Origin: Thermoleophilia bacterium
Lineage (GTDB): Bacteria > Actinomycetota > Thermoleophilia > UBA2241
Reading direction: 5' to 3'
DNA: 64,000 nucleotides
Assembly: GCA_035686425.1 (NCBI GenBank)
Contig: DASRZL010000126.1
Location: 1,712 to 65,711, forward strand
In this document: positions 1 to 42,328 of the stretch, piece after piece
How the letters are laid out: each line of letters starts with the position of its first letter
Numbering within the stretch: the first letter of the stretch is position 1
Program-made: the position numbers and the translations under genes
The notes under the pieces: model-generated
What the model saw: the letters and a program-made list of their open reading frames with translations, nothing else
Database searches by the model: none
Told to the model about the DNA's origin: nothing

Positions 1-665
1 ACGTCGCCGTCGCCGACGTCGATGAGGAGCGTGCCGCCGCGTCCGCCGCCGCTCTCGCCGGTCAAGGGGTCGACACGCTCGGCCTCGCCGTCGACGTGAC
101 CGACGAGCGTTCAGTGCGCCGCGCCGTCGCCGACGTGCTCGCGGCCTTCTCCCGGATCGACATCCTGGTCAACGCCGCCGGGGTGACTGTGCGCAAGCGG
201 GCGGAGGATCTCCCGGTGGACGACTGGCGGCGCGTCCTGGAGATCAACGCCACCGGCACCTTCGTCTGCTGCCAGGCCGTCGGCGCGGAGATGGCGCGCA
301 GCGGCGGGGGCGCGATCGTCAATCTGTCCTCCGTGCGGGGGCGGTTCGGCGCGACCTTCGGGCAGGCGGAGTACTCGGCGAGCAAGGGCGCGGTCGACTC
401 CCTGACTCGCTCGCTCGCCGCGCAGTGGGCCGAGCTCGGTATCCGTGTGAACGCCGTCGCGCCGACCTTCGTCGAGACCGACCTCACGCGGGCCGTGCTC
501 GCCGACGAAGCCTTCGCCGCCGGCCTGCGCGCAAGCATTCCCATGGGGCGCTGGGCCGAGGCTGCCGACGTGGTCGGTCCCGTGCTCTTCCTCGTCTCGC
601 CGGCGGCGGCGTTCGTCACCGGCCAGATCCTCTACGTGGACGGCGGTCTCACGGCGCGGGTCTGA
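1..665 (+). CDS. Short-chain dehydrogenase/reductase (SDR), 5'-truncated by window edge (in frame from base 3)
   Basis: ORF translation shows SDR catalytic region (NAAG, S...YSASK) and C-terminal VTGQILYVDGG; reading frame is open to the window start. Confidence 0.8.
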   Translation, partial: VAVADVDEERAAASAAALAGQGVDTLGLAVDVTDERSVRRAVADVLAAFSRIDILVNAAGVTVRKRAEDLPVDDWRRVLEINATGTFVCCQAVGAEMARSGGGAIVNLSSVRGRFGATFGQAEYSASKGAVDSLTRSLAAQWAELGIRVNAVAPTFVETDLTRAVLADEAFAAGLRASIPMGRWAEAADVVGPVLFLVSPAAAFVTGQILYVDGGLTARV

Positions 666-917
666 GCGTTCGCGGACCCCGCGGCAGGGCGCTCGGGGGG
701 ATGCTTGACCTGCTCCCGGCCATCTGCAAGAGTGTTCGCATCATGGACTAGCAGTTCCGTATCGTGGGCATTTCGCCCTTGAGCGGACGGCCGGATGGGA
801 CCCCGGTGACGGGGTCGCCGGGCTGTGGGCGAGCTCGCTCGTCACAGCCGCATCGCGCGAAAGCCGCTCCCCGGTCCGTCGCCCGTGAGCCGGACACGAC
901 GCGAGAGGAGACGTGCG

Positions 918-1718
918 ATGGCTGAGCGTGAGATCTGGAGCGTCGACAAGATCCGCGGCCTGTTCGATCTGACCGGCAAGGTCGCGATCGTGACCGGCGG
1001 GTCGGGGGCCTTCGGCCACGACGCCGCCAAGGCGATGGCCGCCTTCGGTGCGAGTGTGGTCGTCACGAGCCGGCGCGCCGAGAACGTCGAGTCGGCCGCG
1101 GCCGACATCGCCGAGGCGACCGGCGCGCGGGTGCTGCCCGTCTCGTGCGATGCGGTCGACCCGGAGAGCGTCGAGGCCATGGTACAGAAGACCGTCGACG
1201 AGTTCGGCAAGGTCGACATCCTCGTCACTGCCGCCGGCCAGGCCAACCGCTTCGCCGCCGAGGAGTTCCCGCTCGACGAGTGGCAGAAGGTCATGGACTC
1301 GCTCGTCAAGGGTACGTATGTCGTCTGCCAGGCTGTCGGCAAACGCATGATCGCCCAGGGCGGCGGCAAGATCATCACCGTCGGCTCCGTGCGCGGCGAG
1401 CTCGGGCATCCCGGAGGGTATTCCGCCTACGGCACCGCCAAGGGCGCGGTACACCTGCTCACCAAGCAACTCGCCGCCGAGTGGGCCAAGTACCACATCA
1501 ACGTGAACTCCATCGCCCCCTGCATCTTCTGGACCCCGCTCACGCAGCAGGTCCTCGACGACCCCGAGCTCTACAAGATCTTCATGCAGCGCATCCCGTG
1601 GGGCCGCGCCGCGGATCCTCAGGACTTCATGGGCGCGACGGTCTACCTCGCCTCGGCGGCGTCCGACTTCGTCACCGGGGACATCCTGATGGTCGACGGC
1701 GGCAGCACCGCCGCCTGA
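918..1718 (+). CDS. Short-chain dehydrogenase/reductase (SDR family oxidoreductase)
   Basis: N-terminal Rossmann TGGSGAFG, catalytic YxxxK (YSAYGTAKGA); ATG at 918 preceded by GAGAGGAG RBS; the longer ORF upstream of 918 is GC-frame read-through. Confidence 0.8.
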   Translation: MAEREIWSVDKIRGLFDLTGKVAIVTGGSGAFGHDAAKAMAAFGASVVVTSRRAENVESAAADIAEATGARVLPVSCDAVDPESVEAMVQKTVDEFGKVDILVTAAGQANRFAAEEFPLDEWQKVMDSLVKGTYVVCQAVGKRMIAQGGGKIITVGSVRGELGHPGGYSAYGTAKGAVHLLTKQLAAEWAKYHINVNSIAPCIFWTPLTQQVLDDPELYKIFMQRIPWGRAADPQDFMGATVYLASAASDFVTGDILMVDGGSTAA

Positions 1719-1741
1719 CCCTCCGGCTGAAGGGGGCTGCA

Positions 1742-2692
1742 GTGAGCACCACGGGTGCTGAGTGCGTCGCCGTCATCGGGGGCGGCATGATGGGCGTCGG
1801 CGTGGCCCAGGTCTTCGCCGCCGCCGGGCATGAGGTCGCGCTCCAGGACGTGTCTCAGGAGGCCCTCGAGCGTGCCCCGGGCACGCTCGCGGCGAACCTC
1901 GCCTTCCTCGCCGAGCACGGTCTCTTCTCGGCCGACGGCGTCGCTGACGCCGTCGGCCGCGTGCGCACCACCGCGGACCTTGCGGAGGCGGCCGCCGGCG
2001 CCGACGTCGTCGTCGAGTGCGTGTTCGAGGATCTCACCCTCAAGCAAGAGGTCTTCGAGCGTCTCGACGCCGTCTGCCCGGTCGAGACGATCCTGTGCAC
2101 CAATACATCGGTGATGGGCATCACCGAGATCGGCGCCCGCACCGTGCGCAAGGAGCGGGTCGTTGGCACGCACTTCTGGAACCCGCCGTACCTGATCCCG
2201 CTGGTCGAAGTCGTGCGCACCGAGCACGTCGATCCAGTCGTGGTCGAGCGCACCATGGACCTGCTGCGACGCGTGGGCAAGCACCCGATCGTCTGCAAGA
2301 AGGACGTCCCTGGCTTCGTCGCCAATCGCCTGCAGCATGCCCTCTGGCGGGAGGCCATCTCGATCGTCGAGCGGGGCATCGCCGACGCGGAGACGGTGGA
2401 CGAGAGCATTCGCTACGGTCCCGGCCTTCGCCTGCCGATCCTGGCGCCGATGGAGAACGCGGACATGGTGGGTCTCGACCTCACGCTGGCGATCCACGAC
2501 TACATCCTGCCGCACCTCGAAGCCTCGGGCGAGCCGTCGCCGCTCTTGCGCGCGAAGGTCGAGGCCGGGGATCTCGGGTTCAAGAGCGGCAAGGGGTTCG
2601 CCGAGTGGACGCCCGAGTCGGCCGAGGCGTCGCGGAGGCGTTTGGCGGCCTACCTGGTGCACGTGCTGGGCGATCCCGAGCGGGGGTTCTGA
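1742..2692 (+). CDS. 3-hydroxyacyl-CoA dehydrogenase family protein (L-carnitine dehydrogenase-like)
   Basis: VAVIGGGMMGVGVAQVFAAAGHEV NAD-binding N-terminus, 3HCDH N- and C-domains, about 316 aa; GTG start after AAGGGGG RBS. Confidence 0.75.
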   Translation: MSTTGAECVAVIGGGMMGVGVAQVFAAAGHEVALQDVSQEALERAPGTLAANLAFLAEHGLFSADGVADAVGRVRTTADLAEAAAGADVVVECVFEDLTLKQEVFERLDAVCPVETILCTNTSVMGITEIGARTVRKERVVGTHFWNPPYLIPLVEVVRTEHVDPVVVERTMDLLRRVGKHPIVCKKDVPGFVANRLQHALWREAISIVERGIADAETVDESIRYGPGLRLPILAPMENADMVGLDLTLAIHDYILPHLEASGEPSPLLRAKVEAGDLGFKSGKGFAEWTPESAEASRRRLAAYLVHVLGDPERGF

Positions 2693-2714
2693 GACGGCCG
2701 AGCGGCGCGACGGA

Positions 2715-3443
2715 GTGCAGGTCCTCTCGCGCGCGGCGCTGTTGCTGCGGGCGCTCTCCGTCACGCCCGAGGGCTTGACTCCCATCGCGCTCGCCGACCA
2801 GGTCGGCCTGCCGCGCTCCACCTGCTACCGCATCGTCGGCGCGCTCTGCCAGGAGGGGCTCATGCGCCTCTCGCCCTCGGGCAAGCTGCACATCGGCGCC
2901 GGTCTCATCAGCCTCGCCGCCGCCGGCCGGCGCGATCTGCGGCACGAGTCGGCTCCGCTCCTCGAGCGCCTGTCACTCGAGCTGCACGAGACCGTGGAGC
3001 TCGTCGTGCTCGACGGCGACGAGGCGCTGTTCACCGACCAGTACGTCCCGCAACGCTCGCTGCGCGTGGTGGCGGAGGTGGGCGACCGCTTTCCGCTCTA
3101 CTGCACCGCGTGCGGCAAGGCGCTGCTGGCCGAGCTGCCGGACGCGGAGGCGGCGCGTCTGGTACCGCCGCGTCTCGAGCCGCTCACCAGCCACACCATC
3201 GTCGACCGGGACGCGCTCTTCCGGGAGGTCGAGGAGGCGCGGATCACCGGCGTGGCCTACGACCACCAGGAACACACGCTCGGCGTATCCGCGGTGGGCG
3301 CCGCCCTCAAGGATGCCGGCGGCGCCATGGCCGCCATCACCGTGGCCATGCCGGCCGCTCGCCTCGACGGCCACGAGGAGCGCATCTCCGCCGCGCTCCT
3401 ACGTACTCGCGACGACATCCAGCAGGCCATCGACGCGAGCTGA
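2715..3443 (+). CDS. IclR family transcriptional regulator
   Basis: N-terminal wHTH (VQVLSRAALLLRAL...GLPRSTCYRIV) and C-terminal IclR effector domain; start choice (GTG 2715) uncertain. Confidence 0.75.
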   Translation: MQVLSRAALLLRALSVTPEGLTPIALADQVGLPRSTCYRIVGALCQEGLMRLSPSGKLHIGAGLISLAAAGRRDLRHESAPLLERLSLELHETVELVVLDGDEALFTDQYVPQRSLRVVAEVGDRFPLYCTACGKALLAELPDAEAARLVPPRLEPLTSHTIVDRDALFREVEEARITGVAYDHQEHTLGVSAVGAALKDAGGAMAAITVAMPAARLDGHEERISAALLRTRDDIQQAIDAS

Positions 3444-3642
3444 CCGGCGGCCGCCTCCAACGCCGGATCCGTATTGACAGCGGATTCGGGACGTCTTAGC
3501 GTATCCACGATACGGCATTTCGTGTCCGAGATGCGGATAGTCGAGCACCGGGCGCACGGCCGCCACATCATCGTCGGCGGGCAGTCCGGGTGCGCGAGAG
3601 CCCGTCTGCCGTGACTGTAACGAGACCGAGGAGAGTAAGCCC

Positions 3643-4602
3643 ATGGGCAAGAAGGTATTCGTTGACCTCACACATCCTTTCAGCGCGGAGATTCCCCGGT
3701 GGCCGTACTTCGTGAAGCCGGTCATCGACTCCATGCACACCCTGGCGAAGGGCGGTGTCCTCACGCAACGCATCGACTGCGTGCAGCACACCGGCACCCA
3801 CGCCGACGCTCCTCGTCACGTCATGGAGCGCGAGTTCAACGGCAAACGTGCCCGCTACACGCACGAGATGCCGGTCGACGCCTACACCGGCGACGCCGTC
3901 TGCCTCGACATCCAGATCGAGAAGTGGGGCCTCATCCTGCCCGCGCATATCGAGGACGCCTGCGAGCGCGCCGGCATCAAGCCTGAGGAGCTCAAGGGCA
4001 TGGTCGTGTGCCTCAACACCGGCATGCACCGCAAGTTCGACGACTCCATGGACTACTACCAGTACTCCTGCGGCACCGGCGTCGAGGTCGGCAGGTGGTT
4101 CGTCGAAAGGCAGGTCAAGGTCGTGGCCATGGACATGCAGGCCCTCGACCATCCGCTCCACACCGCGATGGGCAAGAACGGCCCGCCGCAGATGAACCTC
4201 CCGGGCGCCTCCGGCCGTCCGATCACCGAGGAGTACATCGAGAAGTACGGCATCGAGGCCTACGCCGAGTTCGAGAAGGCCGTCTACATCGAGGTGCACG
4301 GCCAGGACGCCTACGACGCCAAGTTCGGCGACCTCGAGGCGATCGGCTGCGAGGGGACCTGGGAGCCCTGCCACAAGCAGATGCTCGGCCACGGCATCGT
4401 CGGCGTCGAGAACCTCGGCGGCGACCTGGACAAGGTCAGGGGCAAGCGGTTCCGCTTCTTCTGCTTCCCGATCCGCTGGTATATGGGCGACGGCTCCATG
4501 GTGCGCTGCGCCGCCGAGATCGACGAGGACGACCTGAACGACGTGCCGGATCGCACGTACACCTACGCCGGCACCGGCTACGGTCCCGGAGCCGGCTACT
4601 GA
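3643..4602 (+). CDS. Cyclase family protein (kynurenine formamidase-like, PF04199)
   Basis: Conserved HTGTHADAP cyclase motif; strong GAGGAG RBS; gene visibly lower in GC than its neighbours. Confidence 0.75.
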   Translation: MGKKVFVDLTHPFSAEIPRWPYFVKPVIDSMHTLAKGGVLTQRIDCVQHTGTHADAPRHVMEREFNGKRARYTHEMPVDAYTGDAVCLDIQIEKWGLILPAHIEDACERAGIKPEELKGMVVCLNTGMHRKFDDSMDYYQYSCGTGVEVGRWFVERQVKVVAMDMQALDHPLHTAMGKNGPPQMNLPGASGRPITEEYIEKYGIEAYAEFEKAVYIEVHGQDAYDAKFGDLEAIGCEGTWEPCHKQMLGHGIVGVENLGGDLDKVRGKRFRFFCFPIRWYMGDGSMVRCAAEIDEDDLNDVPDRTYTYAGTGYGPGAGY

Positions 4603-4732
4603 TCCGCCTGTCGCCCCCAGGGGCCGACGGCGTGGCGCCCGTTGGCGTTCGCAACGGGACGGCACGGTGTGGCGCTTGACGGCGTTCGTATTCATTCGGA
4701 GAAGCCGGACACGGCTCGAGAAGGAGTGAGGC

Positions 4733-5083
4733 ATGGAGGTCACCAGGTACGACGAGGCCCCGAGCTACGAGGCCCCCGGACATTTCGACGTGTACGGCCT
4801 GCGCCTGCAGGGGTTCGAGGTCAGCAAGACCCGCAACTTCTGGATGAGCATCTCTCACTTCCTGCCCGGGGGCGGCTGCGAGTACGTCGCCACCCCGATC
4901 GAGAAGGTCTACTTCGTGCTCGAGGGTGAAGTCACCGTCAAGACGGAGGAGGGCGAGGTCATCCTCAAGAAGTGGGACTCCATCTACCTGGCGCCGGACG
5001 AGGCCCGCTCGATCCTGAACCACACCAACTCGCCGGCGACGATGCTCGTCGCAATCCCCTATCCGGAGCCCCGCGAGTTCTGA
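4733..5083 (+). CDS. Cupin domain protein
   Basis: Small 116-aa beta-barrel protein with cupin-like motif, GGAG RBS. Confidence 0.55.
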   Translation: MEVTRYDEAPSYEAPGHFDVYGLRLQGFEVSKTRNFWMSISHFLPGGGCEYVATPIEKVYFVLEGEVTVKTEEGEVILKKWDSIYLAPDEARSILNHTNSPATMLVAIPYPEPREF

Positions 5084-5224
5084 GCCGGGACTGCGGGAGC
5101 GTGTCCCGGGTTCTCCGGCGGGGACGACGCGCGCACGCGGACGGCACGGGGACGGACCTCCGCCCTCGCGTGTGCACCCGCGCGCCAGACAATTCCCGAC
5201 CCCACGACCTCCGAGGAGGCCATC

Positions 5225-6055
5225 ATGCCCAGACCGATCATCACCGCGGCGCTCACGGGACCCGTGGCGACCAAGGCCGACAACGCCGGCATGCCGGGGA
5301 ACGTGGCGGAGATCGCCGCGGACGCCAAGGCCTGCCACGAGGCCGGCGCGGCCGTCATCCACATCCACCTGCGTGACGATCGGGGCGAAATGACGGCCGA
5401 CCTCGGCGTCGCGCGGCGCACGGTCGAGGCCGTTCGCGAGGTGTGCCCGGGCATCACGCAGCTCTCCACGGGCGGGCTCCAGTTCACCTACGAAGAACGC
5501 ATGCGCCTGGTCGAGGCGAAGCCCGCGATGGCCACGCTCAACCCTTGCACGATGACCTTCGCCGCCGCGGAGTTCCGCAACCCTCCCAAGCAGATGATGG
5601 AGCTGGCGGCCCGGATGATCGAGCTCGGCGTCAAGCCCGAGGTCGAGATCTACGACACCGGCCATCTCGAGATGATGCTCTACCTGCTGCACAAGGAACT
5701 CCTCGTCCCGCCGCTGCAGGTCTCGTTCGTGATGGGCGTCCGCGGCGGCATGAAGGGCGACCCGGGACTCCTCGCGTACCTCGTACGCGAACTGCCCGAG
5801 GGGACCAGCTGGCAGGTCATCGGCGTGGCCAGGGCCAACCTCCCGATGACGGCGGTCGGCCTGGCCATGGGGGGGAACGCGCGCACCGGCATGGAGGACA
5901 CCCTCGCGCTCGAGAAGGGTGTCCCTGCCGAGTCGAACCGGCAGCTGGTCGAGCGCCTCGTCGGCATCGCCCAGTCGATGCAACTGCAGCCCGCGTCCGT
6001 CGCCGAAGTCGTGGAGCGGCTCCAGCTCCATCCGGAGCTCGTCAACGGAGCCTGA
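5225..6055 (+). CDS. BKACE family enzyme (3-keto-5-aminohexanoate cleavage enzyme-like, DUF849)
   Basis: N-terminal PIITAALTG...HIHLRD and overall 276-aa length typical of Kce/BKACE TIM-barrel enzymes. Confidence 0.75.
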   Translation: MPRPIITAALTGPVATKADNAGMPGNVAEIAADAKACHEAGAAVIHIHLRDDRGEMTADLGVARRTVEAVREVCPGITQLSTGGLQFTYEERMRLVEAKPAMATLNPCTMTFAAAEFRNPPKQMMELAARMIELGVKPEVEIYDTGHLEMMLYLLHKELLVPPLQVSFVMGVRGGMKGDPGLLAYLVRELPEGTSWQVIGVARANLPMTAVGLAMGGNARTGMEDTLALEKGVPAESNRQLVERLVGIAQSMQLQPASVAEVVERLQLHPELVNGA

Positions 6056-6096
6056 GGCAAGCGCGGTCCGAGCGTACCGCGGGGCGGAACCGTTGC

Positions 6097-6124
6097 TTGA
6101 CAGTCTGGAGCCCGGCTATATGAT
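6097..6124 (+). promoter_or_regulatory. Near-consensus sigma-70-type promoter (TTGACA-N16-TATGAT) upstream of the Liv-type ABC operon
   Basis: Sequence read directly; followed by the two CCGTAT(C/G)GTGG boxes. Confidence 0.5.
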
Positions 6125-6345
6125 GCCCGTATCGTGGGAGGGAACGTCCGTATGGTGGATGGCCATGGAGGTGGTATCGCACCGTTGACTAGGCTCTGAG
6201 AGGTGCGCGCGCGGTGTTCTGAGGCAGTCGGTACGGGCGCCCGTTCGCAGCACCGGCATTCGAGAAGGCCATCGGGGGGGTCCCGGCCCGCCGCGTCGCC
6301 CGGCTTGGGCGACGGACGGGGGCGGGACCACGTTAAGGAGGCGGT

Positions 6346-7716
6346 ATGAGTTCAGAGGACAAAACCCGCAAGACGACCGAGACGGGCATCAAGACGCCGA
6401 TCTCTCGTCGTGACTTCCTCAAGACGGCCGGCGCCACCGGCCTTGCTCTGGGCGCCACCGGTGGGCTCGGGGGCGTGCTCGCCGCGTGCGGGGGCGAGAG
6501 CAGCGACACCGCCAGTGAGGGCGAAGGCCGCGAGATCAAGATCGGCTTCGTGTCGCCGCTCACCGGTCCGTTGGCGGCCTTCGGCGAGGCGGACCAGTTC
6601 TGCGTCGACCAGTGGAGCGAAGCTGTCGCCGACGGCCTCGCCACGGCCGACGGCGCGGTGCACCCGATCAACTTCATCATCAAGGACTCGCAGTCAGACT
6701 CGAACCGCGCCGCGACCGTGGCCGGCGACCTCATCAACAACGACGCCGTGGACATCATGATGGTCGCCTCCACGCCGGACACGGTGCCGCCGGTGGCGGA
6801 CCAGTGCGAGGCGTTCGGCGTCCCGTGCGTGTCCAACGACTGTCCGTGGCAGGCCTACTTCTTCGGCCGCGGCGGCGATCCCGAGAACCCATTCAAGTGG
6901 ACCTACCACTCCTTCTGGGGTTCCGAGTCGGCGGCCGCCGTGTTCATGTCCATGTGGGACAGCTTCCCGACCAACAAGAAGATCGGCGTGATGTGGCCGA
7001 ACGACGCCGACGGCAACGCGTGGGCCGACGCCGAGACGGGCATGCCCACCTTCTGGGGCCCCGCCGGCTACAAGTTCACCGACCCCGGCCGGTATCAGAA
7101 CGGCACGGAGGACTTCACCTCCCAGATCTCCAAGTTCAAGGCCGCAGGCGTTGACATCCTCAACGGCGTCATGATCCCGCCCGACTTCACGAACTTCTGG
7201 AAGCAGGCCTATCAGCAGGGCCTCAAGCCCCCGTTGGTCACCATCGCGAAGGCTCTCCTCTTCCCGTCGGCCCTCGAGGCTGTTGGCGACATCGGCTACG
7301 GCCTCACCACTGAGGTGTGGTGGACGCCGCAGCATCCGTTCACCTCGTCACTCACCGGCCAGACCAGCCAGGAGATCGGCGACGCCTACGAGTCGACGAC
7401 CGGGAAGCAGTGGACGCAGCCGATCATGCACTACGCCGTGTTCGAGGTCGTGGCCGACGCCATCAAGCGCACCGAGAACATCGACGACAAAGAGCAGATC
7501 ATCGCCGCCGTCCAAGCCACCGACATCGAGACCATCAGCGGCCCCGTCCACTGGAACGGAAGCGACCTGAACCCGGTCCCGAACGTCTGCATCACGCCGC
7601 TCGTGGGCGGCCAGTGGGTCCAGGGGGAGAGCTACCCGTTCGACCTCAAGATCGTGGAGAACTCCATCGCCCCGGAGGTGCCCACCAACGCCGAGATCGC
7701 GCAGATGGAATACTGA
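6346..7716 (+). CDS. ABC transporter substrate-binding protein (branched-chain amino acid/amide-binding family), Tat-lipoprotein signal
   Basis: RRDFLKTAGATGLALGA Tat motif followed by LAACGG lipobox; type I periplasmic binding fold; first gene of a Liv-type operon. Confidence 0.8.
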   Translation: MSSEDKTRKTTETGIKTPISRRDFLKTAGATGLALGATGGLGGVLAACGGESSDTASEGEGREIKIGFVSPLTGPLAAFGEADQFCVDQWSEAVADGLATADGAVHPINFIIKDSQSDSNRAATVAGDLINNDAVDIMMVASTPDTVPPVADQCEAFGVPCVSNDCPWQAYFFGRGGDPENPFKWTYHSFWGSESAAAVFMSMWDSFPTNKKIGVMWPNDADGNAWADAETGMPTFWGPAGYKFTDPGRYQNGTEDFTSQISKFKAAGVDILNGVMIPPDFTNFWKQAYQQGLKPPLVTIAKALLFPSALEAVGDIGYGLTTEVWWTPQHPFTSSLTGQTSQEIGDAYESTTGKQWTQPIMHYAVFEVVADAIKRTENIDDKEQIIAAVQATDIETISGPVHWNGSDLNPVPNVCITPLVGGQWVQGESYPFDLKIVENSIAPEVPTNAEIAQMEY

Positions 7717-7792
7717 GTGTGGCTGACCCGACCCCGCTGCCCAATCCTGCTCCGCCGCGTCACCACGAGGTAGAAGCGATGCAGGATGGTAG

Positions 7793-8524
7793 ATGCTCAT
7801 GACCGTGGTGCTCCAGACCACCGGACTCAACAAGTCCTTCGGTGGCGTGAAGGTCATCGACGACTTGAGCGTGCAGCTCCACGAAGGCGAAGCACTGGGC
7901 ATCGTCGGGCCGAACGGCGCCGGGAAGACGACGTTCTTCAACCTCGTCACCGGCGTGTATCGGCCCGACTCGGGTCGGGTCGAGTTCAAGGGCAAGGACG
8001 TGACGCACGTTGCGCGGCAGGGCATCTGCCGGCTCGGACTGGGACGGACTTACCAGATCCCGAAGCCGTTCTCGGACATGAGCGTGTTCGAGAACGTGCT
8101 GGTGTGCGCCGCGTATGCCCGCGGCGCGAGCGAGCGCGCCAGCTACCGGCGCTGCGTCGAGGTGCTCGAGCAGACGCGGCTCGCCCACAAGGCCAATCAC
8201 CAGGCGGGCGCCCTGCCCCTGCTCGACCGCAAGCGGCTCGAGCTGGCCAGGGCGCTCGCCGGCGATCCCACGGTATTGCTCCTGGACGAGATCGCCGGCG
8301 GCCTCACCGAGACCGAGGTCGAGGTCCTCATCGGCACCATCAAGGAGCTGCGCCAGGGCGGTATCTCGATCGTCTGGATCGAGCACATCGTCCACGCGCT
8401 GCTCGCGGTCGTCGATCGCATCTGCGCCATCAGCTTCGGCGCCCTGCTCATCGAGGGCGACCCCAACGAGGTCATGTGCAGCGACGAAGTACAGGCCTGC
8501 TACATGGGGGGGACGCCGATATGA
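7793..8524 (+). CDS. ABC transporter ATP-binding protein (LivG-like)
   Basis: Walker A GPNGAGKTT, signature and Walker B LLLDE; start could be ATG 7799. Confidence 0.85.
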   Translation: MLMTVVLQTTGLNKSFGGVKVIDDLSVQLHEGEALGIVGPNGAGKTTFFNLVTGVYRPDSGRVEFKGKDVTHVARQGICRLGLGRTYQIPKPFSDMSVFENVLVCAAYARGASERASYRRCVEVLEQTRLAHKANHQAGALPLLDRKRLELARALAGDPTVLLLDEIAGGLTETEVEVLIGTIKELRQGGISIVWIEHIVHALLAVVDRICAISFGALLIEGDPNEVMCSDEVQACYMGGTPI

Positions 8525-9219
8525 GCATCCTGGAGGTCAAGGACGTCGACGTCTTCTACGGCGACTTCCAGGCCCTGTTCTCGGTCAGCTTCTCCGTCGA
8601 GGAAGGACAGACGTTCGCGTTCATCGGCGCCAACGGCGGCGGCAAGTCCACGCTGCTCAAGACGCTCGCCGGCCTGCTCAGGCCGACGTCGGGCGAGGTG
8701 CTGTTCCAGGGCGAGGCCATCAACAACGTGCCGGCCCACACGCGTGTGGGCATGGGCATCGCCCTCGTGCCCGAGGGACGTCGCGTGTTCCCGAGCCTCA
8801 CGGTCCACGAGAACCTGCTCATCGGCGCCTACGGGGGCCGCAAGGGCGAGTGGAACGTCGAGTCGGTGCTGGAGCTCTTCCCGCTTCTCAGGCCTCTCAT
8901 CAAGCGTCAGGCCTCCAGCCTGTCGGGCGGCGAGCAGCAAGCGCTGGCCATCGGGCGGGCGCTCATGTCCAACCCTCACCTCATCCTCCTGGACGAAGTC
9001 TCGCTCGGTCTCGCACCCGTCGTCATCAAGCGCATCTACGAGGCGATGGGCCACCTGGTGCAGAAGGGCACGACCATCCTCGTGGTCGAGCAAGACGTGC
9101 AGCACGTGCTCACGGTGGCCGACTACGTCGCCTGCTTCCTCGAGGGCAGGATCTCGCTGGAGGGCCAGCCCGGCGACCTGAGTTCCGAGCAAATCACCGC
9201 GGCCTACTTCGGGATGTGA
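8521..9219 (+). CDS. ABC transporter ATP-binding protein (LivF-like)
   Basis: GANGGGKST Walker A, LSGGEQQ signature, ILLDE Walker B; ATGA overlap with upstream ATPase. Confidence 0.85.
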   Translation: MSILEVKDVDVFYGDFQALFSVSFSVEEGQTFAFIGANGGGKSTLLKTLAGLLRPTSGEVLFQGEAINNVPAHTRVGMGIALVPEGRRVFPSLTVHENLLIGAYGGRKGEWNVESVLELFPLLRPLIKRQASSLSGGEQQALAIGRALMSNPHLILLDEVSLGLAPVVIKRIYEAMGHLVQKGTTILVVEQDVQHVLTVADYVACFLEGRISLEGQPGDLSSEQITAAYFGM

Positions 9220-9223
9220 TCGC

Positions 9224-10096
9224 ATGGATTGGGTGAATGTCGCCGTACAGGGGGTCCTCCTGGGCGGGCTGTTCGCACTGTTCGCGACCGGGCTCGCCCT
9301 CGTCTTCGGCGTGATGCGCCTGGTCAACCTCGCTCACGGCGACCTCGGCATCCTCGCCGCGTTCGTCGCCCTGTTTCTGCTGGACAGCTTCAGCCTGGGC
9401 GTGTTCTGGGCGTCCCTCGCGTCAATCGCCATCATGTTCTGCGTGGGCTACGTGCTGCAGCGCGGGCTGCTCAACTACACCATCGGCACCGACGATACGC
9501 GGCCGATCCTGGTCACGTTCGGTTTGTCGATCATCATCCAGAACGCGCTCATCATGCAGTTCTCGGCCGACTCACAGGGCCTTGACGCGGGAGCCATCGA
9601 GAACGCCAGCGTCCGCATCACGGACCAGCTCGCCGTCGGCTGGTACCCGCTGATCGTGTTCGGCGTCGCCGTCGCGGTCATCGCGGCGCTCCAGCTGTTC
9701 CTCAACAGGACGACCCTCGGCCGTGCCTTCCGGGCCACCTCCGACGATCAGGAAGCGGCCGAGCTCATGGGCATCAACAACCGCCACATCTACAGCCTGG
9801 CCATGGCCATCGCCCTGGCCATCGTCGCCCTCGCCGGGATCCTGCTCGCGGTCCGCACGACGTTCGACCCGAGTCAGGGCCCGTTCCGCCTCATCTTCGC
9901 CTTCGAGGCGGTCATCATGGGCGGCATGGGCTCCATCTGGGGCACGCTCATCGGCGGCATCATCCTCGGCGTCTCGCAGACCTTGGGCGCCCAGGCCTTC
10001 GGCGCCGGCTGGGGCATCTTCGTGGGGCACGTCGTGTTCCTGGCGGTCCTGGCCTTCAAGCCGAGCGGCTTCTTCGCGAAGACGGTGACGGCATGA
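9224..10096 (+). CDS. Branched-chain amino acid ABC transporter permease (LivH-like)
   Basis: Polytopic membrane protein with LVNLAHGD motif typical of LivH. Confidence 0.8.
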   Translation: MDWVNVAVQGVLLGGLFALFATGLALVFGVMRLVNLAHGDLGILAAFVALFLLDSFSLGVFWASLASIAIMFCVGYVLQRGLLNYTIGTDDTRPILVTFGLSIIIQNALIMQFSADSQGLDAGAIENASVRITDQLAVGWYPLIVFGVAVAVIAALQLFLNRTTLGRAFRATSDDQEAAELMGINNRHIYSLAMAIALAIVALAGILLAVRTTFDPSQGPFRLIFAFEAVIMGGMGSIWGTLIGGIILGVSQTLGAQAFGAGWGIFVGHVVFLAVLAFKPSGFFAKTVTA

Positions 10097-11184
10097 GCAC
10101 GCCCTTGGAGTCCATGCCCTCCAAAGGTATCCCGGCGTTCCGCATCGCGCGGTCGGCGCCGATGCACCGCTACGTGCTCATCGTGTTCCTGGCGGTCGTC
10201 GCCGTGCTCGCCAGTGTGCCCTTCTGGGCGCAGACCGGCACGATCCGGACCTTGGTGACCTTCTTCACCCTGCTGGCCCTCGCCCAGATGTGGAACCTGC
10301 TCGGCGGCTACGCCGGCCTCATCTCCGTAGGCCAGCAGGCCTACGTCGGCCTCGGCGCCTACGGCGTGTGGCTGATCGCCGACATCCTGGGCCTCCACCC
10401 CTTCATCGCGGTGCCACTCGCCGGCGTACTGGCGGCGGTCGTCGCGCTGCCGGTCGGCCCGCTGCTGTTCCGCCTCAAAGGCGGCTACTTCGCCATCGGC
10501 ACGTGGGTCGTGGCTGAGGTCGTGCGGCTGATCGTCGCCAACATCCAGGCGACGGGCGGAGGCTCCGGCAAGACCATCCTGTCGGCCGCCCGCCTGCCCA
10601 TCGACACGCGCATCCAGGGCACGTACTTCCTGGGGCTGGGCGTCGCCGTCGGCTCCATCCTCCTGGTGTACTTCCTCCTGCGCTCGCGCGTAGGCTTGGC
10701 CCTCACGGCCATCCGGGACAACGACCTGGCCGCGCAGAGCTCCGGCGTGAACGTGTTCCGATCCAAGCTGCTCGTCTACGTGATCGCGGCCTTCGGCTGC
10801 GGCGCCATGGGCGCCGTCGTCGCCCTGAACCTGCTCCGCATCCAGCCGACGGCCGCGTTCAGCATCAACTGGACGGCGTACGCGCTGTTCATCGTGGTCA
10901 TCGGCGGCTTCGGCACGATCGAGGGTCCGATCATCGGCTCGGTCATCTACTTCGCGCTCCTGCAGAACCTGAGTCAGTACGGCACGTCGTACCTGCTCCT
11001 GCTCGGCGTGATCGCTGTGATCATGGCGGCGAAGGCGCCGCGCGGCATCTGGGGCTTCGTCGCGAAGCGCTGGAACATCCACCTGTTCCCGGTCCGGCGC
11101 CGGCTTGTGTTGGAGGCGCCACCCCCGGGTGACGACGGTGGGCCGGCAGACGCGTCGGATCCGCCCCTCGCGGAGCCCGCCTGA
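10093..11184 (+). CDS. Branched-chain amino acid ABC transporter permease (LivM-like)
   Basis: Hydrophobic 363-aa protein, overlaps LivH-like stop; completes SBP-ATPase-ATPase-permease-permease operon. Confidence 0.8.
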   Translation: MSTPLESMPSKGIPAFRIARSAPMHRYVLIVFLAVVAVLASVPFWAQTGTIRTLVTFFTLLALAQMWNLLGGYAGLISVGQQAYVGLGAYGVWLIADILGLHPFIAVPLAGVLAAVVALPVGPLLFRLKGGYFAIGTWVVAEVVRLIVANIQATGGGSGKTILSAARLPIDTRIQGTYFLGLGVAVGSILLVYFLLRSRVGLALTAIRDNDLAAQSSGVNVFRSKLLVYVIAAFGCGAMGAVVALNLLRIQPTAAFSINWTAYALFIVVIGGFGTIEGPIIGSVIYFALLQNLSQYGTSYLLLLGVIAVIMAAKAPRGIWGFVAKRWNIHLFPVRRRLVLEAPPPGDDGGPADASDPPLAEPA

Positions 11185-11364: not shown

Positions 11365-12144
11365 GTGATCGAGACCGATCGCGACGTGGAGAAGGAACAA
11401 CGCAACGGCGTCCAGGTGCTCGCCCGGGCCGCCACGATCCTGCGGCTGCTGGCGGCCGACTCGTCGGGAGGTTTGACCTTCAGCGAGCTGGTCGCACGGT
11501 CCGGTCTGCCACGGACCACGGTCCACCGCATTCGCGGCGCCCTCGAGCACGAGGACTTCATCTACACCGACGCCGCCACCGGCCGTCTTCACCTGGGACC
11601 CGGCATCATGCGCCTCGCCATGGCCAAGCGCGATCTGCCGACGGTCGTGCGGCCGTACCTCGAGCAGCTGGCGCGCGAGCTCAACGAGACCGTCGATCTT
11701 GGAGTGCTGGACGGCATGCACGTGCTCTTCATCGCCCAGCATCCGGCGCCACAGCGCTCGCTCATGGTGGTCTCGCGCGTCGGCGCCCGCTTCCCGGCGT
11801 ACTGCACGGCCAACGGCAAGGCGCTGCTCGCCCAGCTCCCCCAGGACGAGATCAAGCCCCGGCTTCCCCAGCGACTGGAGACGCCGGCGCAGCACACACC
11901 CATCAGCCGCAAGGCGCTCCTGGCCGAGCTGGAGGAGGTGCGCGACAGCGGGCTCGCCTACGACTGCGAGGAGCATCGCACCGGCATCTGCAGCGTCGGC
12001 GTGGCCATCACCGACATCGATGGGAGCTCCGCAGCCATCTCCGTACCGATGCCTGCGGCCCGCTTCCACGAGGACCCGGACACCGTCGCCGCGGCGCTGC
12101 TGCGCGTCCGCGACGAGGTCCAGATCGCCCTCCACAACGGCTGA
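11365..12144 (+). CDS. IclR family transcriptional regulator (second paralog)
   Basis: GVQVLARAATILRLLA...GLPRTTVHRI wHTH plus IclR effector domain; clearly paralogous to the 2715..3443 product. Confidence 0.8.
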   Translation: MIETDRDVEKEQRNGVQVLARAATILRLLAADSSGGLTFSELVARSGLPRTTVHRIRGALEHEDFIYTDAATGRLHLGPGIMRLAMAKRDLPTVVRPYLEQLARELNETVDLGVLDGMHVLFIAQHPAPQRSLMVVSRVGARFPAYCTANGKALLAQLPQDEIKPRLPQRLETPAQHTPISRKALLAELEEVRDSGLAYDCEEHRTGICSVGVAITDIDGSSAAISVPMPAARFHEDPDTVAAALLRVRDEVQIALHNG

Positions 12145-12314: not shown

Positions 12315-12926
12315 TCAGCCGGGCCTGATCACCCGCGTCTCGGTGACGATCGCCGTCACCGGAAGGTCATGCGTCTCGCACACGATCCGGGGCATCAGTT
12401 GCGTCTCGAACGCGAGGGCGACCCAGGGCGTGCCCGGGCGGGTGAGCCGAAGGTAGGTGTCGTAGAAGCCGCCGCCGTAGCCGCAGCGGCCTCCCTCCTC
12501 ATCGAACGCCGAACCCGGTACGAACACGATGTCCATCTCCTCCGGAGGGATCTCGAGCAGCCCCTCTCGCGGCTCGGGGATGCCCCAGGTCCCGGCGACG
12601 AGGTCCGAGGCCGGATCGGTGACGCGGAACGCCTCCATCGTCCGGGCGCTGCGGATGCGCGGCAGGCAGAGCGTCTTGCCGGCCGCGAGCACCCGCTCCG
12701 CGAGCGGCGCGGTGTCGAGCTCGGTGCGGAACGAGGCGAACGACATGACGGTACCGGCGGCGGCCAGCTCGGGGAGGCTGGCGGCGCGGGCGCACACGGC
12801 CGCGCTGAGGCGTTCGCGCTCCGCCGCGGGCAGGGCGGCACGAGCGTCGAGGCCGCAGCGGCGTGCCTCCGTCTTGAGGAGGCCCTCGCCGTCTTCGTCG
12901 GGTCGTTGTTCTCGTTCTGGCGTCAT
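12315..12926 (-). CDS. 5-formyltetrahydrofolate cyclo-ligase
   Basis: MTHFS family motifs (GxGYYD-like GGGFYDTYL near the C-terminus); start taken at internal ATG (MTPEREQ). Confidence 0.7.
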   Translation of the reverse strand: MTPEREQRPDEDGEGLLKTEARRCGLDARAALPAAERERLSAAVCARAASLPELAAAGTVMSFASFRTELDTAPLAERVLAAGKTLCLPRIRSARTMEAFRVTDPASDLVAGTWGIPEPREGLLEIPPEEMDIVFVPGSAFDEEGGRCGYGGGFYDTYLRLTRPGTPWVALAFETQLMPRIVCETHDLPVTAIVTETRVIRPG

Positions 12927-13040
12927 GCTGGCCCTTCCGGCGTACACTGGGCTGGTTACGCTTCACGGGCGCCGGGGCGCGATGGTATGTCTGGGCGCCG
13001 CCTCCGTGGCCTATAGTATAGGCAGAGTCGCCCTGCGGGC

Positions 13041-14282
13041 ATGCGGGCTGCTCGACGAGACATCGTGGCCGCTGCGGACCCTGGCGTCTTCGTGGCCACC
13101 GAGAGGATGAGCATGGGGCTGCGCTCACAGGAAGAAGTGTCTCTGGCTACCGTCTTCGCGCGTACGCTGCGGAGCGTCATCGCGTTGACCACGTCCGAGG
13201 AGAAGCGAGTCTGGCCGGCCGCCGGCGAGGTGCTGGCGACGACGCCGGCCGACGCCGTGGCGCCGGCGTCGCTCGTCCGCCTGCTGCAGTTCTCGATCCT
13301 CCCCGAGATCCTCGGCGAGAGCGCCGGGCCCGCCATCTACCTCGCCAGCAAGCGCTGCAGCCGCGACCTCGGCATCACCTCCATCCAGGGGCTCAAGGAC
13401 TGGTTCGCGGAGATGAAGCTGGGCGAACTCGAGGTCGAGGTCGACGAGGAGCGCGTCCTGGTCAAGCTCAGTCACTGCCTCAGCTGCGAACGGCTGCCGG
13501 CCACGGGCACCGCGGTGTGCGACGTCGAGCGCGGCATCATCGACGGCGTGCTCCAGGAGATCACCGGCACGGAGGTCCTCACCAAGGAGACCATGTGCTG
13601 GGGGCTGGGCGATACCGTGTGCCAGTTCGAGGGCTACGCCGGTCAGCAGGCCGGCTATCTCTACCAGGAGAACGGCTTCAACCCGGATGCGCAGCGCCGG
13701 CTGCTCGCGCACCTGGCCGACCAGGCGGACGTCGCGCTCGACAACCTGCGCCTGCTCCACGAGCGTCGCGAGCACGAGACGCACGACCCGCTGACCGGCC
13801 TCATGAACTTCCGGCAGCTGCGCGAGCGGGCCGCGTTCGAGCTGGCGAGGGCCGAGCGCTACGGGCGCAACGTCGCGTTCGTGATGATCGATCTCGACGA
13901 CTTTGCCGTGGTCAACGAAAGCGCCGGACGCGAAGCCGGCGACGAGGTGCTGCGGCACTGGGCGGCAGCCATCACCGCGCAGCTGCGCAGCTGCGATCTG
14001 GTCTGCCGCTACGGCGCCGACGAGTTCCTCCTGGTTCTTCCGGAGACCGCCGACCAGGAGGCTGACGCCATTCTCGGGCGCGTGCTCGGGACCATGCAGC
14101 AGCTGGCCGTCGAGACCGGTGGCCGCGCCATCGCCCTCACCGCCTCCGCCGGCGTCGCGAGCTTCCCGGCCGACGGGCTCACGGCCGAGGAGATCGTCGC
14201 CAAGGCCGCGACGACGATGTACACGGCCCGGAGCGGGGGGCCGGGCCGTGTCGCCTTCTACTCCGGTCCGCCCCGCTCCTGA
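13041..14282 (+). CDS. Diguanylate cyclase (GGDEF domain) with N-terminal cysteine-rich V4R-like sensor domain
   Basis: C-terminal GGDEF domain (RYGADEFLLVL with an active-site-like GADEF motif); N-terminal domain carries conserved Cys (CLSC...C...C) resembling V4R; start could be ATG 13107. Confidence 0.7.
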   Translation: MRAARRDIVAAADPGVFVATERMSMGLRSQEEVSLATVFARTLRSVIALTTSEEKRVWPAAGEVLATTPADAVAPASLVRLLQFSILPEILGESAGPAIYLASKRCSRDLGITSIQGLKDWFAEMKLGELEVEVDEERVLVKLSHCLSCERLPATGTAVCDVERGIIDGVLQEITGTEVLTKETMCWGLGDTVCQFEGYAGQQAGYLYQENGFNPDAQRRLLAHLADQADVALDNLRLLHERREHETHDPLTGLMNFRQLRERAAFELARAERYGRNVAFVMIDLDDFAVVNESAGREAGDEVLRHWAAAITAQLRSCDLVCRYGADEFLLVLPETADQEADAILGRVLGTMQQLAVETGGRAIALTASAGVASFPADGLTAEEIVAKAATTMYTARSGGPGRVAFYSGPPRS

Positions 14283-19227: not shown

Positions 19228-19303
19228 GCGGATGTAGTGTAGTTGGTAACACGTCAGCTTCCCAAGCTGAAGATCGCGGGTTCGAGTCCCGTCATCCGCT
19301 CCA
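19228..19303 (+). tRNA. tRNA-Gly (anticodon CCC)
   Basis: Manual cloverleaf: acceptor GCGGATG/CATCCGC, D-stem GTGT/ACAC, anticodon stem TCAGC/GCTGA with loop TTCCCAA, T-arm GCGGG-TTCGAGT-CCCGT, encoded CCA. Confidence 0.85.
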
Positions 19304-30714: not shown

Positions 30715-30805
30715 CGGTCACAAGGTGCCGGCGCGCTGCCCTCTCGGCGTGCGCCGGCTCTCATCAGCGAAACGCGCGGGATAGTGGAGACCAAAGGAGG
30801 ACGCG

Positions 30806-32515
30806 TTGAGTTCGATCAGTCGCAAGTCCCCGGTGCCGAGCGATATCGAGATCGCCCAGGCCGCCACCATGCAGCCCATCCAGGCGATCGCCGAGAAGGC
30901 CGGCATCCTCGAGGACGAGCTGGAGCTCTACGGTCGCTACAAGGCCAAGATCGACTACATGGCCCTGCTCGACCGTCTCAAGGACAAGCCCGACGGCAAG
31001 ATCATCGACGTCACCGCGATCACCCCGACGCCGCTCGGCGAGGGCAAGACCGTCACCGCGGTCGGCCTCTCGGAGAGCATGAACGCCGTCGGCATCGACA
31101 CCATGCTCGCCCTGCGTGAGCCGTCCCTCGGCCCGGTCTTCGGCATCAAGGGCGGCGCGGCCGGCGGCGGCTACTCGCAGCTCATCCCGATGGAGGATCT
31201 CAACCTCCACTTCACCGGTGACATCCACGCCGTCGGCGCCGCCAACAACCTGCTCGCGGCGATGGTCGACAGTCACCTCATGCACGGCAACGAGCTCGAC
31301 ATCGATCCGCTGTCGATCTCGTGGCGCCGCGTCGTGGACCTCAACGACCGCGCCATGCGCGAGATCGTCAACGGTCTCGGCGGCAAGCTGAACGGCATCC
31401 CGCGCCAGACCGGCTATGACATCACCGTCGCCAGCGAGGTCATGGCCATCCTCGGCCTCGCCACCTCGCTCAAGGACCTGCGCGAGCGCCTCGGCCGCAT
31501 CACCTTCGCCTACGACACGTCGGGCAAACCGCTCACCGCCGACGACATCGGCGCCGGCGGCGCCATGACCGTGCTCCTCAAAGACGCCATCAAGCCGAAC
31601 CTCATGCAGACGCTGGAGGGCAACGCGGCGCTCATCCACGCCGGTCCGTTCGCGAACATCGCCCAGGGCAACAACTCCATCATCGCCGACAAGGTCGCCA
31701 TGAAGCTCAGCGACTACGTCGTCACCGAGAGCGGCTTCGCCGCCGACCTGGGCGCCGAGAAGTTCATGGACATCATCTGCCGCTACGGCGGCTTCGCGCC
31801 GAGCGCCGTGGTCATCACGTGCACCATGCGCGCCCTCAAGATGCACGGCGGCTTGCCGGTCAACCCCGAGCTGCTCAAGGAAGAGAACAACGAGGCCCTC
31901 TCAAAGGGCTGCGAGAACCTCGCCAAGCAGATCGAGAACATGAAGTACTTCGGTGTGCCGGTCGTGGTGACGATCAACCGGTTCGCGTTCGACCGCGACG
32001 CCGAGATCGAGATCGTGCGCAAGGCTGCGATCGAGGCCGGCGCCGAGGACGCAGTGCCGATCAACGTCCATGCGATGGGCGGCGACGGCGGTCAGGAGGC
32101 GGCCGAGGTCGTCAAGGCGGCCGCCGACAAGGGCGGGGACTTCCAGTTCCTGTATCCGCTCGAGGCCTCCATCAAGGAGAAGATCGAGACCATCGCCACC
32201 AAGATCTACGGCGCCGACGGCGTGGACTACCTGCCCGAGGCCGAGGCCAAGATCAAGCAGTTCACCGAGCAGGGTCTGGACAAGCTGCCGCTCTGCATGG
32301 CGAAGACGCACCTGTCGCTGAGCCACGACCCGGCGCTCAAGGGCCGTCCGCGAGGCTTCCGCGTGCCGATCCGCGACATCCGTCCCGCCACCGGCGCCGG
32401 GTACCTGTACCCGCTGCTCGGCGAGATGCGCACCATGCCCGGCCTGGCCAAGCGGCCGGCCGCCGTCGACGTCGACATCGACGTCGAGACCGGCCGGATC
32501 ATCGGCCTGTTCTGA
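30806..32515 (+). CDS. fhs: Formate--tetrahydrofolate ligase
   Basis: SDIEIAQ...PTPLGEGKTVT...signature, 569 aa; TTG start. Confidence 0.9.
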   Translation: MSSISRKSPVPSDIEIAQAATMQPIQAIAEKAGILEDELELYGRYKAKIDYMALLDRLKDKPDGKIIDVTAITPTPLGEGKTVTAVGLSESMNAVGIDTMLALREPSLGPVFGIKGGAAGGGYSQLIPMEDLNLHFTGDIHAVGAANNLLAAMVDSHLMHGNELDIDPLSISWRRVVDLNDRAMREIVNGLGGKLNGIPRQTGYDITVASEVMAILGLATSLKDLRERLGRITFAYDTSGKPLTADDIGAGGAMTVLLKDAIKPNLMQTLEGNAALIHAGPFANIAQGNNSIIADKVAMKLSDYVVTESGFAADLGAEKFMDIICRYGGFAPSAVVITCTMRALKMHGGLPVNPELLKEENNEALSKGCENLAKQIENMKYFGVPVVVTINRFAFDRDAEIEIVRKAAIEAGAEDAVPINVHAMGGDGGQEAAEVVKAAADKGGDFQFLYPLEASIKEKIETIATKIYGADGVDYLPEAEAKIKQFTEQGLDKLPLCMAKTHLSLSHDPALKGRPRGFRVPIRDIRPATGAGYLYPLLGEMRTMPGLAKRPAAVDVDIDVETGRIIGLF

Positions 32516-32665
32516 GAACCTGAAGGAGCGACCCCGGGGCGCCGGCCGCCATGCGGCGCCGGCGCCCCGCGGAGCCCTTCTGGGCTCCGCTTCGACCGGC
32601 GACTCGTCCGGCCTGCCGGTCGCTCCCCGTCCGCGGCGCCCCGCGCGCCGCGCTGGAGGTACACG

Positions 32666-33307: not shown

Positions 33308-33340
33308 TCACCCCTGACGACCGTAAACGAGAGGGAAGCC

Positions 33341-42267: not shown

Positions 42268-42328
42268 GCGGCGCGTAGACTCCATCTTTCGAGACGACGC
42301 CGAACCCGGAAGGGGGCGATAGGTAGAT

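Follow-up and report, generated by a model that had tools for sequence, protein, structure and literature searches.

A probable phloroglucinol catabolic regulon in a genome of the Thermoleophilia

Gene content of the cluster

The DNA analysed here, called the window, is a 64,000-nucleotide stretch of a Thermoleophilia (Actinomycetota) genome, and the region between 918 and 12144 of it is, as far as it can be read from sequence, very probably a regulon for the catabolism of phloroglucinol (1,3,5-trihydroxybenzene). Genes were annotated with Pfam and NCBIfam, the real genes standing out by a GC content at the third codon position (GC3) of about 0.9. The cluster genes, all on the + strand, encode a short-chain dehydrogenase/reductase (SDR1), a dehydrogenase of the HBD family, a cyclase, a small cupin, a BKACE (an enzyme that cleaves beta-keto acids), a five-gene ABC importer of the Liv type and two regulators of the IclR family (Table 1). 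An earlier sequence-only reading of the window had proposed the first five genes and the importer, and these genes were confirmed, for the most part with the coordinates given. It had also counted two SDRs between 918 and 11184, where only one was found, the gene at about 2715-3443 being an IclR regulator; a second SDR gene does exist upstream of 918 (SDR0). SDR0 is cut by the window edge and the cluster extends leftward beyond it. Both IclR regulators had been overlooked. The start codon of the first is uncertain, GTG 2715 being the first in-frame start past the stop codon of the dehydrogenase gene.

Table 1. Genes and promoter-like sites of the cluster, in window coordinates (DPGC, PGR and TfD are introduced in the next section).
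Feature	Position	Strand	Match or source
SDR0, 3' part of an SDR gene, 5' end cut by the window edge	3-665	+	adh_short_C2, 200 bits
P1, TTGACC-17 nt spacer-AAGAGT, then direct repeat TCGCATCATGG-N10-CCGTATCGTGG (736-767)	705-767	+	sequence reading
SDR1, putative NADPH-dependent phloroglucinol reductase (PGR)	918-1718	+	adh_short_C2, 195 bits
TfD, predicted (S)-3-hydroxy-5-oxohexanoate dehydrogenase, triacetate-forming, HBD family	1742-2692	+	homology to CsTfD
IclR-family regulator 1 (IclR1)	~2715-3443	+	IclR_C, 149 bits; HTH_IclR, 36 bits
P2, TTGACA-17 nt spacer-TAGCGT on the + strand, paired repeat inverted on the - strand (3505-3536)	3474-3536		sequence reading
DPGC, predicted Mn-dependent dihydrophloroglucinol cyclohydrolase	3643-4602	+	PF04199, 111 bits
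Small cupin, 116 aa	4733-5083	+	Cupin_2
BKACE, putative triacetate (3,5-dioxohexanoate):acetyl-CoA cleavage enzyme	5225-6055	+	PF05853, 288.1 bits, profile 3-274 of 274
P3, TTGACA-16 nt spacer-TATGAT, 11/12 matches, then CCGTATCGTGG-N10-CCGTATGGTGG (6127-6158)	6097-6158	+	promoter scan
Substrate-binding protein (SBP), TAT signal	6346-7716	+	Peripla_BP_6
ABC ATPase 1	7793-8524	+	ABC_tran, 90.7 bits
ABC ATPase 2	8521-9219	+	ABC_tran, 110.6 bits
Permease 1 (LivH-type)	9224-10096	+	BPD_transp_2, 104.5 bits
Permease 2 (LivM-type)	10093-11184	+	BPD_transp_2, 112.4 bits
IclR-family regulator 2 (IclR2), closes the cluster	11365-12144	+	IclR_C, 146 bits; HTH_IclR, 45 bits

Enzymes of the predicted route

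Tannins and flavonoids are the most abundant of the plant polyphenols, and phloroglucinol is the ring compound that remains of them and a shared bottleneck intermediate in their oxygenase-free degradation. The phloroglucinol pathway and the enzyme families involved are known from biochemical work on Clostridium scatologenes (Zhou et al. 2023, mBio, PMC10470551), where the four steps are carried out by phloroglucinol reductase (PGR) of the SDR family, the Mn-dependent dihydrophloroglucinol cyclohydrolase (DPGC) of the cyclase family, a triacetate-forming dehydrogenase (TfD) of the HBD family and triacetate acetoacetate-lyase (TAL) of the BKACE family. The pathway is already known, and the cluster of the window is very probably its Thermoleophilia version, with an importer and regulators of its own. 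The same four enzyme families stand in one cluster in both organisms, with the SDR reductase adjacent in each. It departs from the known cluster in modest ways: its BKACE is of another lineage, the importer is of the ABC type, the regulators are of the IclR family and have a candidate operator, and in relatives a transhydroxylase is linked to the cluster.

The cyclase of the window was compared with the C. scatologenes enzyme (CsDPGC), whose sequence, like that of CsTfD, was taken from the alignment printed in the supplement of PMC10470551. The two proteins are identical at 251 of 311 residues (81%), and the identity to the DPGC of Clostridium sp. CF012 (locus L083) is 83%. The alignment to CsDPGC showed that the metal motif HTGTHxDAPRH is kept together with Trp20 and Tyr22, the two residues singled out as substrate-specific in comparison with isatin hydrolase (Zhou et al. 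2023, PMC10470551).

At least 541 relatives of DPGC were found when one genome per species was scanned. The best 80 of them are 81-99% identical and come from metagenome-assembled and other genomes labelled as Thermoleophilia, other Actinomycetota, Desulfobacterota, Firmicutes and a few other groups; in each of the loci L004-L083, DPGC lies at about 10001-10957. Partners were counted within 6 kb of DPGC in the 55 species-level loci whose flanks reach 6 kb or more to either side of this gene. A PGR homologue was present in 46 loci, TfD in 43, BKACE and the cupin in 39 each, a transhydroxylase-like molybdenum (Mo) subunit in 30 and a Liv-type binding protein in 15, and the order SDR-TfD-DPGC was conserved in 43-46 of the 55.

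The HBD-family dehydrogenase is 51% identical to CsTfD and 54% identical to the TfD of Clostridium sp. CF012, for which an error-free sequence was available, against 34% to the true HBD 4KUH. It has the motifs THFWNPP, NTSVM and ANRLQHALWREA and a GLRLP insertion in common with CsTfD, and ANRLQ is also conserved. The catalytic Ser, His and Asn of the HBD family are kept and the CoA-contacting Lys56 and Asn221 are missing, Lys56 of the CoA-dependent HBDs being replaced by Gly and the Asn221 region being filled by the GLRLP insertion. The best PDB match was the FHMPC dehydrogenase 4om8 (208 bits), an enzyme of vitamin B6 catabolism; this assignment was rejected, as CsTfD scored 290 bits and the context fits TfD.

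The sequence-only reading had likened this dehydrogenase to the L-carnitine dehydrogenase LcdH. In that case the cluster would serve the catabolism of L-carnitine or gamma-butyrobetaine and the BKACE would cleave 3-dehydrocarnitine. LcdH does belong to the same HBD superfamily, BKACEs cleave dehydrocarnitine in characterised systems, and the two-step logic is the same, an NAD-dependent oxidation of a 3-hydroxy acid followed by an acetyl-CoA-dependent cleavage. The NCBIfam carnitine dehydrogenase models NF005471 and NF005716 also gave partial matches, over the N-terminal two-thirds, but at 132.1 and 153.9 bits these are far below the cut-offs of 414 and 592 and below the 225-250 bits reached with the generic HBD and FHMPC dehydrogenase models. 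The protein, 51-54% identical to TfD and encoded near a cyclase 81% identical to DPGC, groups with TfD and not with LcdH, an outcome named beforehand as one that would count against the LcdH assignment. Moreover, the transporter is not of the betaine/carnitine/choline type, and the conserved partners over the 55 loci are PGR, DPGC and the transhydroxylase. Substrate, partners and transporter all differ from those of the carnitine system, and we give carnitine catabolism almost no chance.

SDR1 is the best match in the window of the PGR of Clostridium sp. CF012 (41% identity, 184 bits), a protein whose C-terminal end, GGYWAN, is like that of CsPGR. The PDB entries 5g4k/5g4l, which we take to be the PGR structure, are the third-best structural match of SDR1 (158 bits). 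This homology and the conserved position of the gene make SDR1 a putative PGR. The identity of SDR0 to the Clostridium PGR is 30%.

We then considered the BKACE, which keeps the Zn ligands His46, His48 and Glu230 together with Glu143, Arg226 and Asp231. In Kce, the BKACE of lysine fermentation, Glu14 binds the lysine intermediate at its 5-amino group; in the window this residue is replaced by the non-acidic Val, while the Zn and catalytic residues are intact. The position is non-acidic also in C. scatologenes, where it is Trp, and for CsTAL this Trp was argued to fit a 5-oxo substrate (Zhou et al., PMC10470551). Across our loci, four types of BKACE from at least three deep lineages were found beside DPGC, all otherwise catalytically intact, with Val at position 14 in the window clade, Met in other Actinomycetota, Trp in Firmicutes and Ile in Desulfobacterota. 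We infer that the BKACE cleaves triacetate mainly because a hydrophobic residue at position 14 recurs across lineages beside DPGC. If this is right, at least three deep BKACE lineages were recruited to the same pathway step.

Relatives of the window BKACE are numerous, at 72-95% identity, in metagenome-assembled genomes of Thermoleophilia and Actinomycetes. Three long contigs with such relatives showed a recurring cyclase-cupin-BKACE core with an SDR and an IclR regulator, and two of the three also carry a molybdopterin enzyme with a 'pyrogallol hydroxytransferase large subunit-like' domain. The NetSyn preprint makes no mention of phloroglucinol, the cyclase or the cupin.

A role of the BKACE as Kce, in lysine fermentation or degradation, was also weighed. 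Kce is its best match both in NCBIfam (257.6 bits) and in the PDB (185 bits), and the two enzymes agree in fold, family and Zn ligands, have the catalytic residues Glu143, Arg226 and Asp231 in common and are of similar length. The score is nevertheless below the Kce equivalog cut-off of 382, the identity is 41%, the Glu that binds the 5-amino group has become Val, and the window genes scanned include no lysine aminomutase, 3,5-diaminohexanoate dehydrogenase or 3-aminobutyryl-CoA lyase; a lysine pathway is extremely improbable. NCBIfam scores, PDB matches and active-site residues led us to reject the carnitine and the lysine readings alike. What the sequence-only reading had observed was largely right and its interpretation largely wrong. 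Its logic of a catabolic island holds, with an HBD-family enzyme acting on a free 3-hydroxy acid and feeding a BKACE that cleaves the 3-keto acid with acetyl-CoA. The substrates it had put forward, namely quaternary amines such as carnitine, beta-hydroxy amino acids and the lysine-derived 3-keto-5-aminohexanoate, disagree with the 81% identity of DPGC, the 51-54% identity of TfD, the loss of Glu14 and the transhydroxylase homologue that lies directly upstream in close relatives. Its view that the substrate is not deducible from sequence was not borne out either, phloroglucinol being deduced from the DPGC and TfD identities and from the transhydroxylase in relatives.

The predicted route would thus begin with import of the phenolic substrate by the Liv-type ABC system. 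SDR1, as PGR, would convert phloroglucinol into dihydrophloroglucinol with NADPH, as homology and conserved gene order suggest. DPGC would then open the ring by retro-Claisen hydrolysis of a C-C bond, giving (S)-3-hydroxy-5-oxohexanoate; this step is the best supported because the protein is 81% identical to a characterised enzyme and its substrate and metal residues are kept. Oxidation of this product to 3,5-dioxohexanoate (triacetate) is the predicted reaction of TfD, well supported because of the 51-54% identity and the signature motifs in common. In the last step the BKACE would move the acetoacetyl part of triacetate onto acetyl-CoA and yield acetoacetate and acetoacetyl-CoA, which we infer because its catalytic residues are intact, the hydrophobic Val replaces the amino-binding Glu14 and it is the sole BKACE in the cluster.

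Several points weigh against the phloroglucinol assignment. The identity of SDR1 to PGR is 41%, and its top two PDB matches are a gluconate 5-dehydrogenase and a generic short-chain dehydrogenase/reductase. With the TAL equivalog model NCBIfam NF053538, whose cut-off is 430, the match came to 155.3 bits and was split into two stretches, and the window BKACE is 37% identical to the TAL type of Firmicutes, 40% to the other type of Actinomycetota and 41% to Kce. It is not orthologous to the characterised TAL, and its triacetate substrate is suggested by context. The annotated window genes showed neither a CoA transferase nor a thiolase that would activate acetoacetate, and the transhydroxylase is seen in relatives, outside the window itself. 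The nearest PDB relatives of the SBP are weak and mixed, comprising aromatic-acid binders (4ey3/4eyg, 4evs and 4f06) and Liv-type proteins. Finally, the identities to CsDPGC (81%) and CsTfD (51%) are slightly underestimated or noisy, both sequences having been rebuilt from a supplementary alignment figure by optical character recognition.

Relatives of the cluster and supply of the substrate

The nearest relative of the cluster is locus L004, whose DPGC is 99% identical to that of the window. Upstream of the position equivalent to the window edge, L004 carries a Mo subunit and a Fer4_11 beta subunit, followed by SDR0. The Mo subunit scored 882 bits against the large subunit of the pyrogallol hydroxytransferase of Pelobacter acidigallici (4v4c), and SDR0 of the window is 95% identical to the gene at L004:6197-7024, which comes after the transhydroxylase genes. 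An open reading frame of 281 aa in L004 (5211-6056) was dropped because its GC pattern is what one expects of a non-coding frame. In P. acidigallici a pyrogallol-phloroglucinol transhydroxylase acts first, and phloroglucinol is then converted through triacetate to acetate. Related Mo and Fer4_11 subunits precede the L004 cluster, whereas the window begins within SDR0 and leaves the transhydroxylase genes outside. Given their place upstream in L004, pyrogallol, and hence the carbon of gallate and tannins, would probably enter the same route through the transhydroxylase.

A paralogous module was observed at L003:3473-10831, and also in L034 and L051. It comprises transhydroxylase-like Mo alpha and beta subunits, an IclR regulator, an orthologue of SDR0 (72%), a distant cyclase (38% to DPGC, 272 aa), a cupin (72%) and a BKACE of the window type (72%), with no TfD, and its substrate may be another reduced phenol. 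Of these, SDR0 is present in the window, whereas the second cyclase of the L003 type is not.

These genes bear on an alternative that keeps the chemistry and moves the entry point. The compound to which the importer and regulators respond would be pyrogallol, gallate or a substituted phloroglucinol, and not free phloroglucinol; in its more detailed form, phloroglucinol would be formed only intracellularly by the upstream transhydroxylase, and SDR0 may add a second branch. The transhydroxylase homologue directly upstream in close relatives, and within 6 kb in 30 of the 55 loci, fits such an entry, as do the retention of SDR0 between the transhydroxylase genes and the PGR promoter and the L003 module with its Mo enzyme, SDR0-like gene, distant cyclase, cupin and BKACE and without TfD. 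The transhydroxylase, however, is not inside the window, no gallate decarboxylase or tannase was seen there, and the ligand of the SBP is not settled by structure matches. We hold the changed entry point to be rather unlikely, and the strictly intracellular formation of phloroglucinol no less so; this alternative would refine the main explanation and does not replace it.

The L003 module also shows a cupin-BKACE pair (72% and 72%) next to a different cyclase and without TfD. The two genes could then be a separate module acting on another beta-keto acid, with triacetate handled elsewhere, and a BKACE of a lineage other than that of the characterised TAL would agree with this. Yet in every window-type locus DPGC, cupin and BKACE form an unbroken run that follows a single putative promoter-operator, no second BKACE lies within 10 kb, and in other phyla the corresponding place is taken by three further BKACE lineages, all hydrophobic at position 14. 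A separate two-gene module is improbable on these grounds, and we retain the BKACE as the last enzyme of the predicted phloroglucinol route.

The sequence-only reading had remarked on the low GC content of the cyclase gene and had taken it as a sign of a mosaic or acquired island. The number itself is correct (65.2% against 69.0% for the window), but not the interpretation. The cyclase has a GC3 of 0.93, the same as or above its neighbours (0.90-0.94 for the genes named in that reading), its deficit sits in codon positions 1 and 2, and low values are not peculiar to it (63.8% for the cupin, 65.8-66.5% for the SBP and the ATPases). The low GC content therefore reflects the amino-acid composition of a strongly constrained sequence and not foreign DNA. 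A recent horizontal acquisition of the cyclase was rejected at a GC3 of 0.93, DPGC being simply extremely conserved.

The histories of the BKACE and DPGC genes nonetheless differ from those of their neighbours. Between Actinomycetota, Desulfobacterota and Firmicutes the identity of DPGC is 81-89%, against 41-49% for PGR, 51-60% for TfD and 30-41% for BKACE, and in L001 and L002, two loci that are otherwise syntenic (SDR 90-93%), the DPGC is a divergent one (74%, 311 aa). This contrast and the divergent copies suggest gene replacement within the cluster. Two further copies stand out by their binning: a contig binned to a Methanomicrobiaceae archaeon (L017) carries a DPGC 97% identical to that of Desulfobacterota, and one binned to Bacteroidales (L032) carries, with its neighbours, a DPGC with 96% identity to actinobacterial copies. 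These two cases would be explained by horizontal transfer or else by mis-binning.

Compared with the Clostridium cluster, the window has a Liv-type ABC importer in place of a transporter of the major facilitator superfamily, and IclR regulators in place of the GntR and sigma54-type regulators of L083; for C. scatologenes an unnamed transcriptional regulator alone is mentioned (PMC10470551). The window is also without nearby CtfAB, thiolase or butyrate genes, its host is a high-GC member of the Thermoleophilia, and the gene order differs. The cluster would place a capacity for phloroglucinol degradation in the Thermoleophilia, which are abundant, almost uncultured soil Actinomycetota, and would do so in complete form, with importer, regulators and, in close relatives, a transhydroxylase feeding in pyrogallol. 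The identity of the phloroglucinol degraders of soil bears on carbon storage through the 'enzyme latch' idea. In the literature searched, no paper was found linking Thermoleophilia with the phloroglucinol pathway.

In Mycobacterium tuberculosis, the genes Rv1714-Rv1719 presumably follow the order SDR-HBD (fadB3)-cyclase-cupin-BKACE with an IclR gene (Rv1719), the same as in the window, and we know of no ABC importer or transhydroxylase beside this operon. The cupin of the window matches the family model of Rv1717 (NCBIfam NF050094) over its full length, but at 110.9 bits, below the cut-off of 175. Rv1714-Rv1718 are predicted to form a five-gene operon, the products of Rv1714-Rv1716 are reported to be about 40% identical to those of the Clostridium genes, and Zhou et al. 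listed M. tuberculosis among the carriers of a phloroglucinol cluster (PMC10470551).

Transport, regulation and the small cupin

The matches of the SBP to solved structures were too weak to decide its ligand; the genomic context suggests that it is phenolic. Three promoter-like sites were found in the cluster (P1 to P3, Table 1), and P3 was found independently by the promoter scanner. An 11-nt motif with the consensus CCGTATCGTGG follows 2-3 nt past each site in two copies, 21 nt apart from start to start. Taken by itself, the motif does not exceed chance (9 occurrences against 5 expected); for the paired motif there were 3 matches against 0 expected, with none in 100 shuffles. The pair was found in 18 of 83 loci, in window-type and hybrid loci alone and at equivalent positions, and was absent from the other 65. 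The repeat of P1 has the same position in every window-type locus with the pattern, and an equivalent of P2 was present in 11 of the 18 matching loci. These paired repeats may be IclR operators, and as such would define three co-regulated units. The two IclR regulators would probably repress SDR1-TfD-IclR1, DPGC-cupin-BKACE and the importer, possibly together with IclR2, which is kept at the cluster end in window-type loci.

The small cupin is as frequent near DPGC as BKACE is, and this across phyla. In the cluster of Clostridium sp. CF012 it adjoins PGR (L083:8630-8974), Firmicutes clusters close to the characterised one are among those that have it, and it is unmentioned by Zhou et al. 2023 (PMC10470551). 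A predicted model of the protein (pLDDT 86) has TM1459 as its nearest fold, which is also its closest sequence relative. The metal ligands of TM1459, His52, His54, His58 and His92, align with Val, Thr, Lys58 and Arg92 of the cupin. In the family alignment Lys58 is nearly invariant and Arg92 invariant, and His17, His42, Glu57 and Glu90 are invariant or nearly so. The fold search returned only TM1459, whose natural function is not known, and generic cupins, and was set aside as a guide to function. We speculate from these residues that the replaced metal histidines, with Lys58 and Arg92, might form a metal-free cationic pocket for an enolate or a carboxylate.

We propose tentatively that, across phyla, phloroglucinol catabolism has in the cupin a fifth component that has gone unrecognised, our own judgement falling slightly on the side of doubt. 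It could possibly be a tautomerase or a handler of phloroglucinol, dihydrophloroglucinol or triacetate. If the cupin had such a role, the published four-enzyme pathway would be incomplete in vivo and the annotation of Rv1717 would be wrong. The role published for Rv1717, that of a beta-galactosidase (PMC7873859), is at odds with the context of a phloroglucinol cluster.

Other genes of the window were also noted. Just downstream of the cluster, past a convergent 5-formyl-tetrahydrofolate cyclo-ligase gene (12315-12962), lies a gene for a diguanylate cyclase with V4R and GGDEF domains (13041-14282), syntenic in L001 and L002. V4R domains occur in regulators that sense small molecules and phenols, and this protein could link phenolic sensing to c-di-GMP signalling. 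The cyclo-ligase gene adjoins the cluster, and further folate-related genes were found at 30785-36809, namely a formate-tetrahydrofolate ligase, an FTCD_C cyclodeaminase-like gene and FolD, with a fused NuoE/NuoF-like FMN/Fe-S protein. These one-carbon genes could belong to a C1 branch of the formate or the acetogenic type. Two open reading frames with a strong coding signal (GC3 0.93-0.95), at 36994-38682 (562 aa) and 42323-43135 (270 aa), have no Pfam match. ARAGORN reported a 'tRNA-Pyl (cta)' at 63470-63542, which had no Rfam tRNA match even at E<=1 and is probably a false positive; the sole supported tRNA of the window is a tRNA-Gly(ccc) at 19228-19303.

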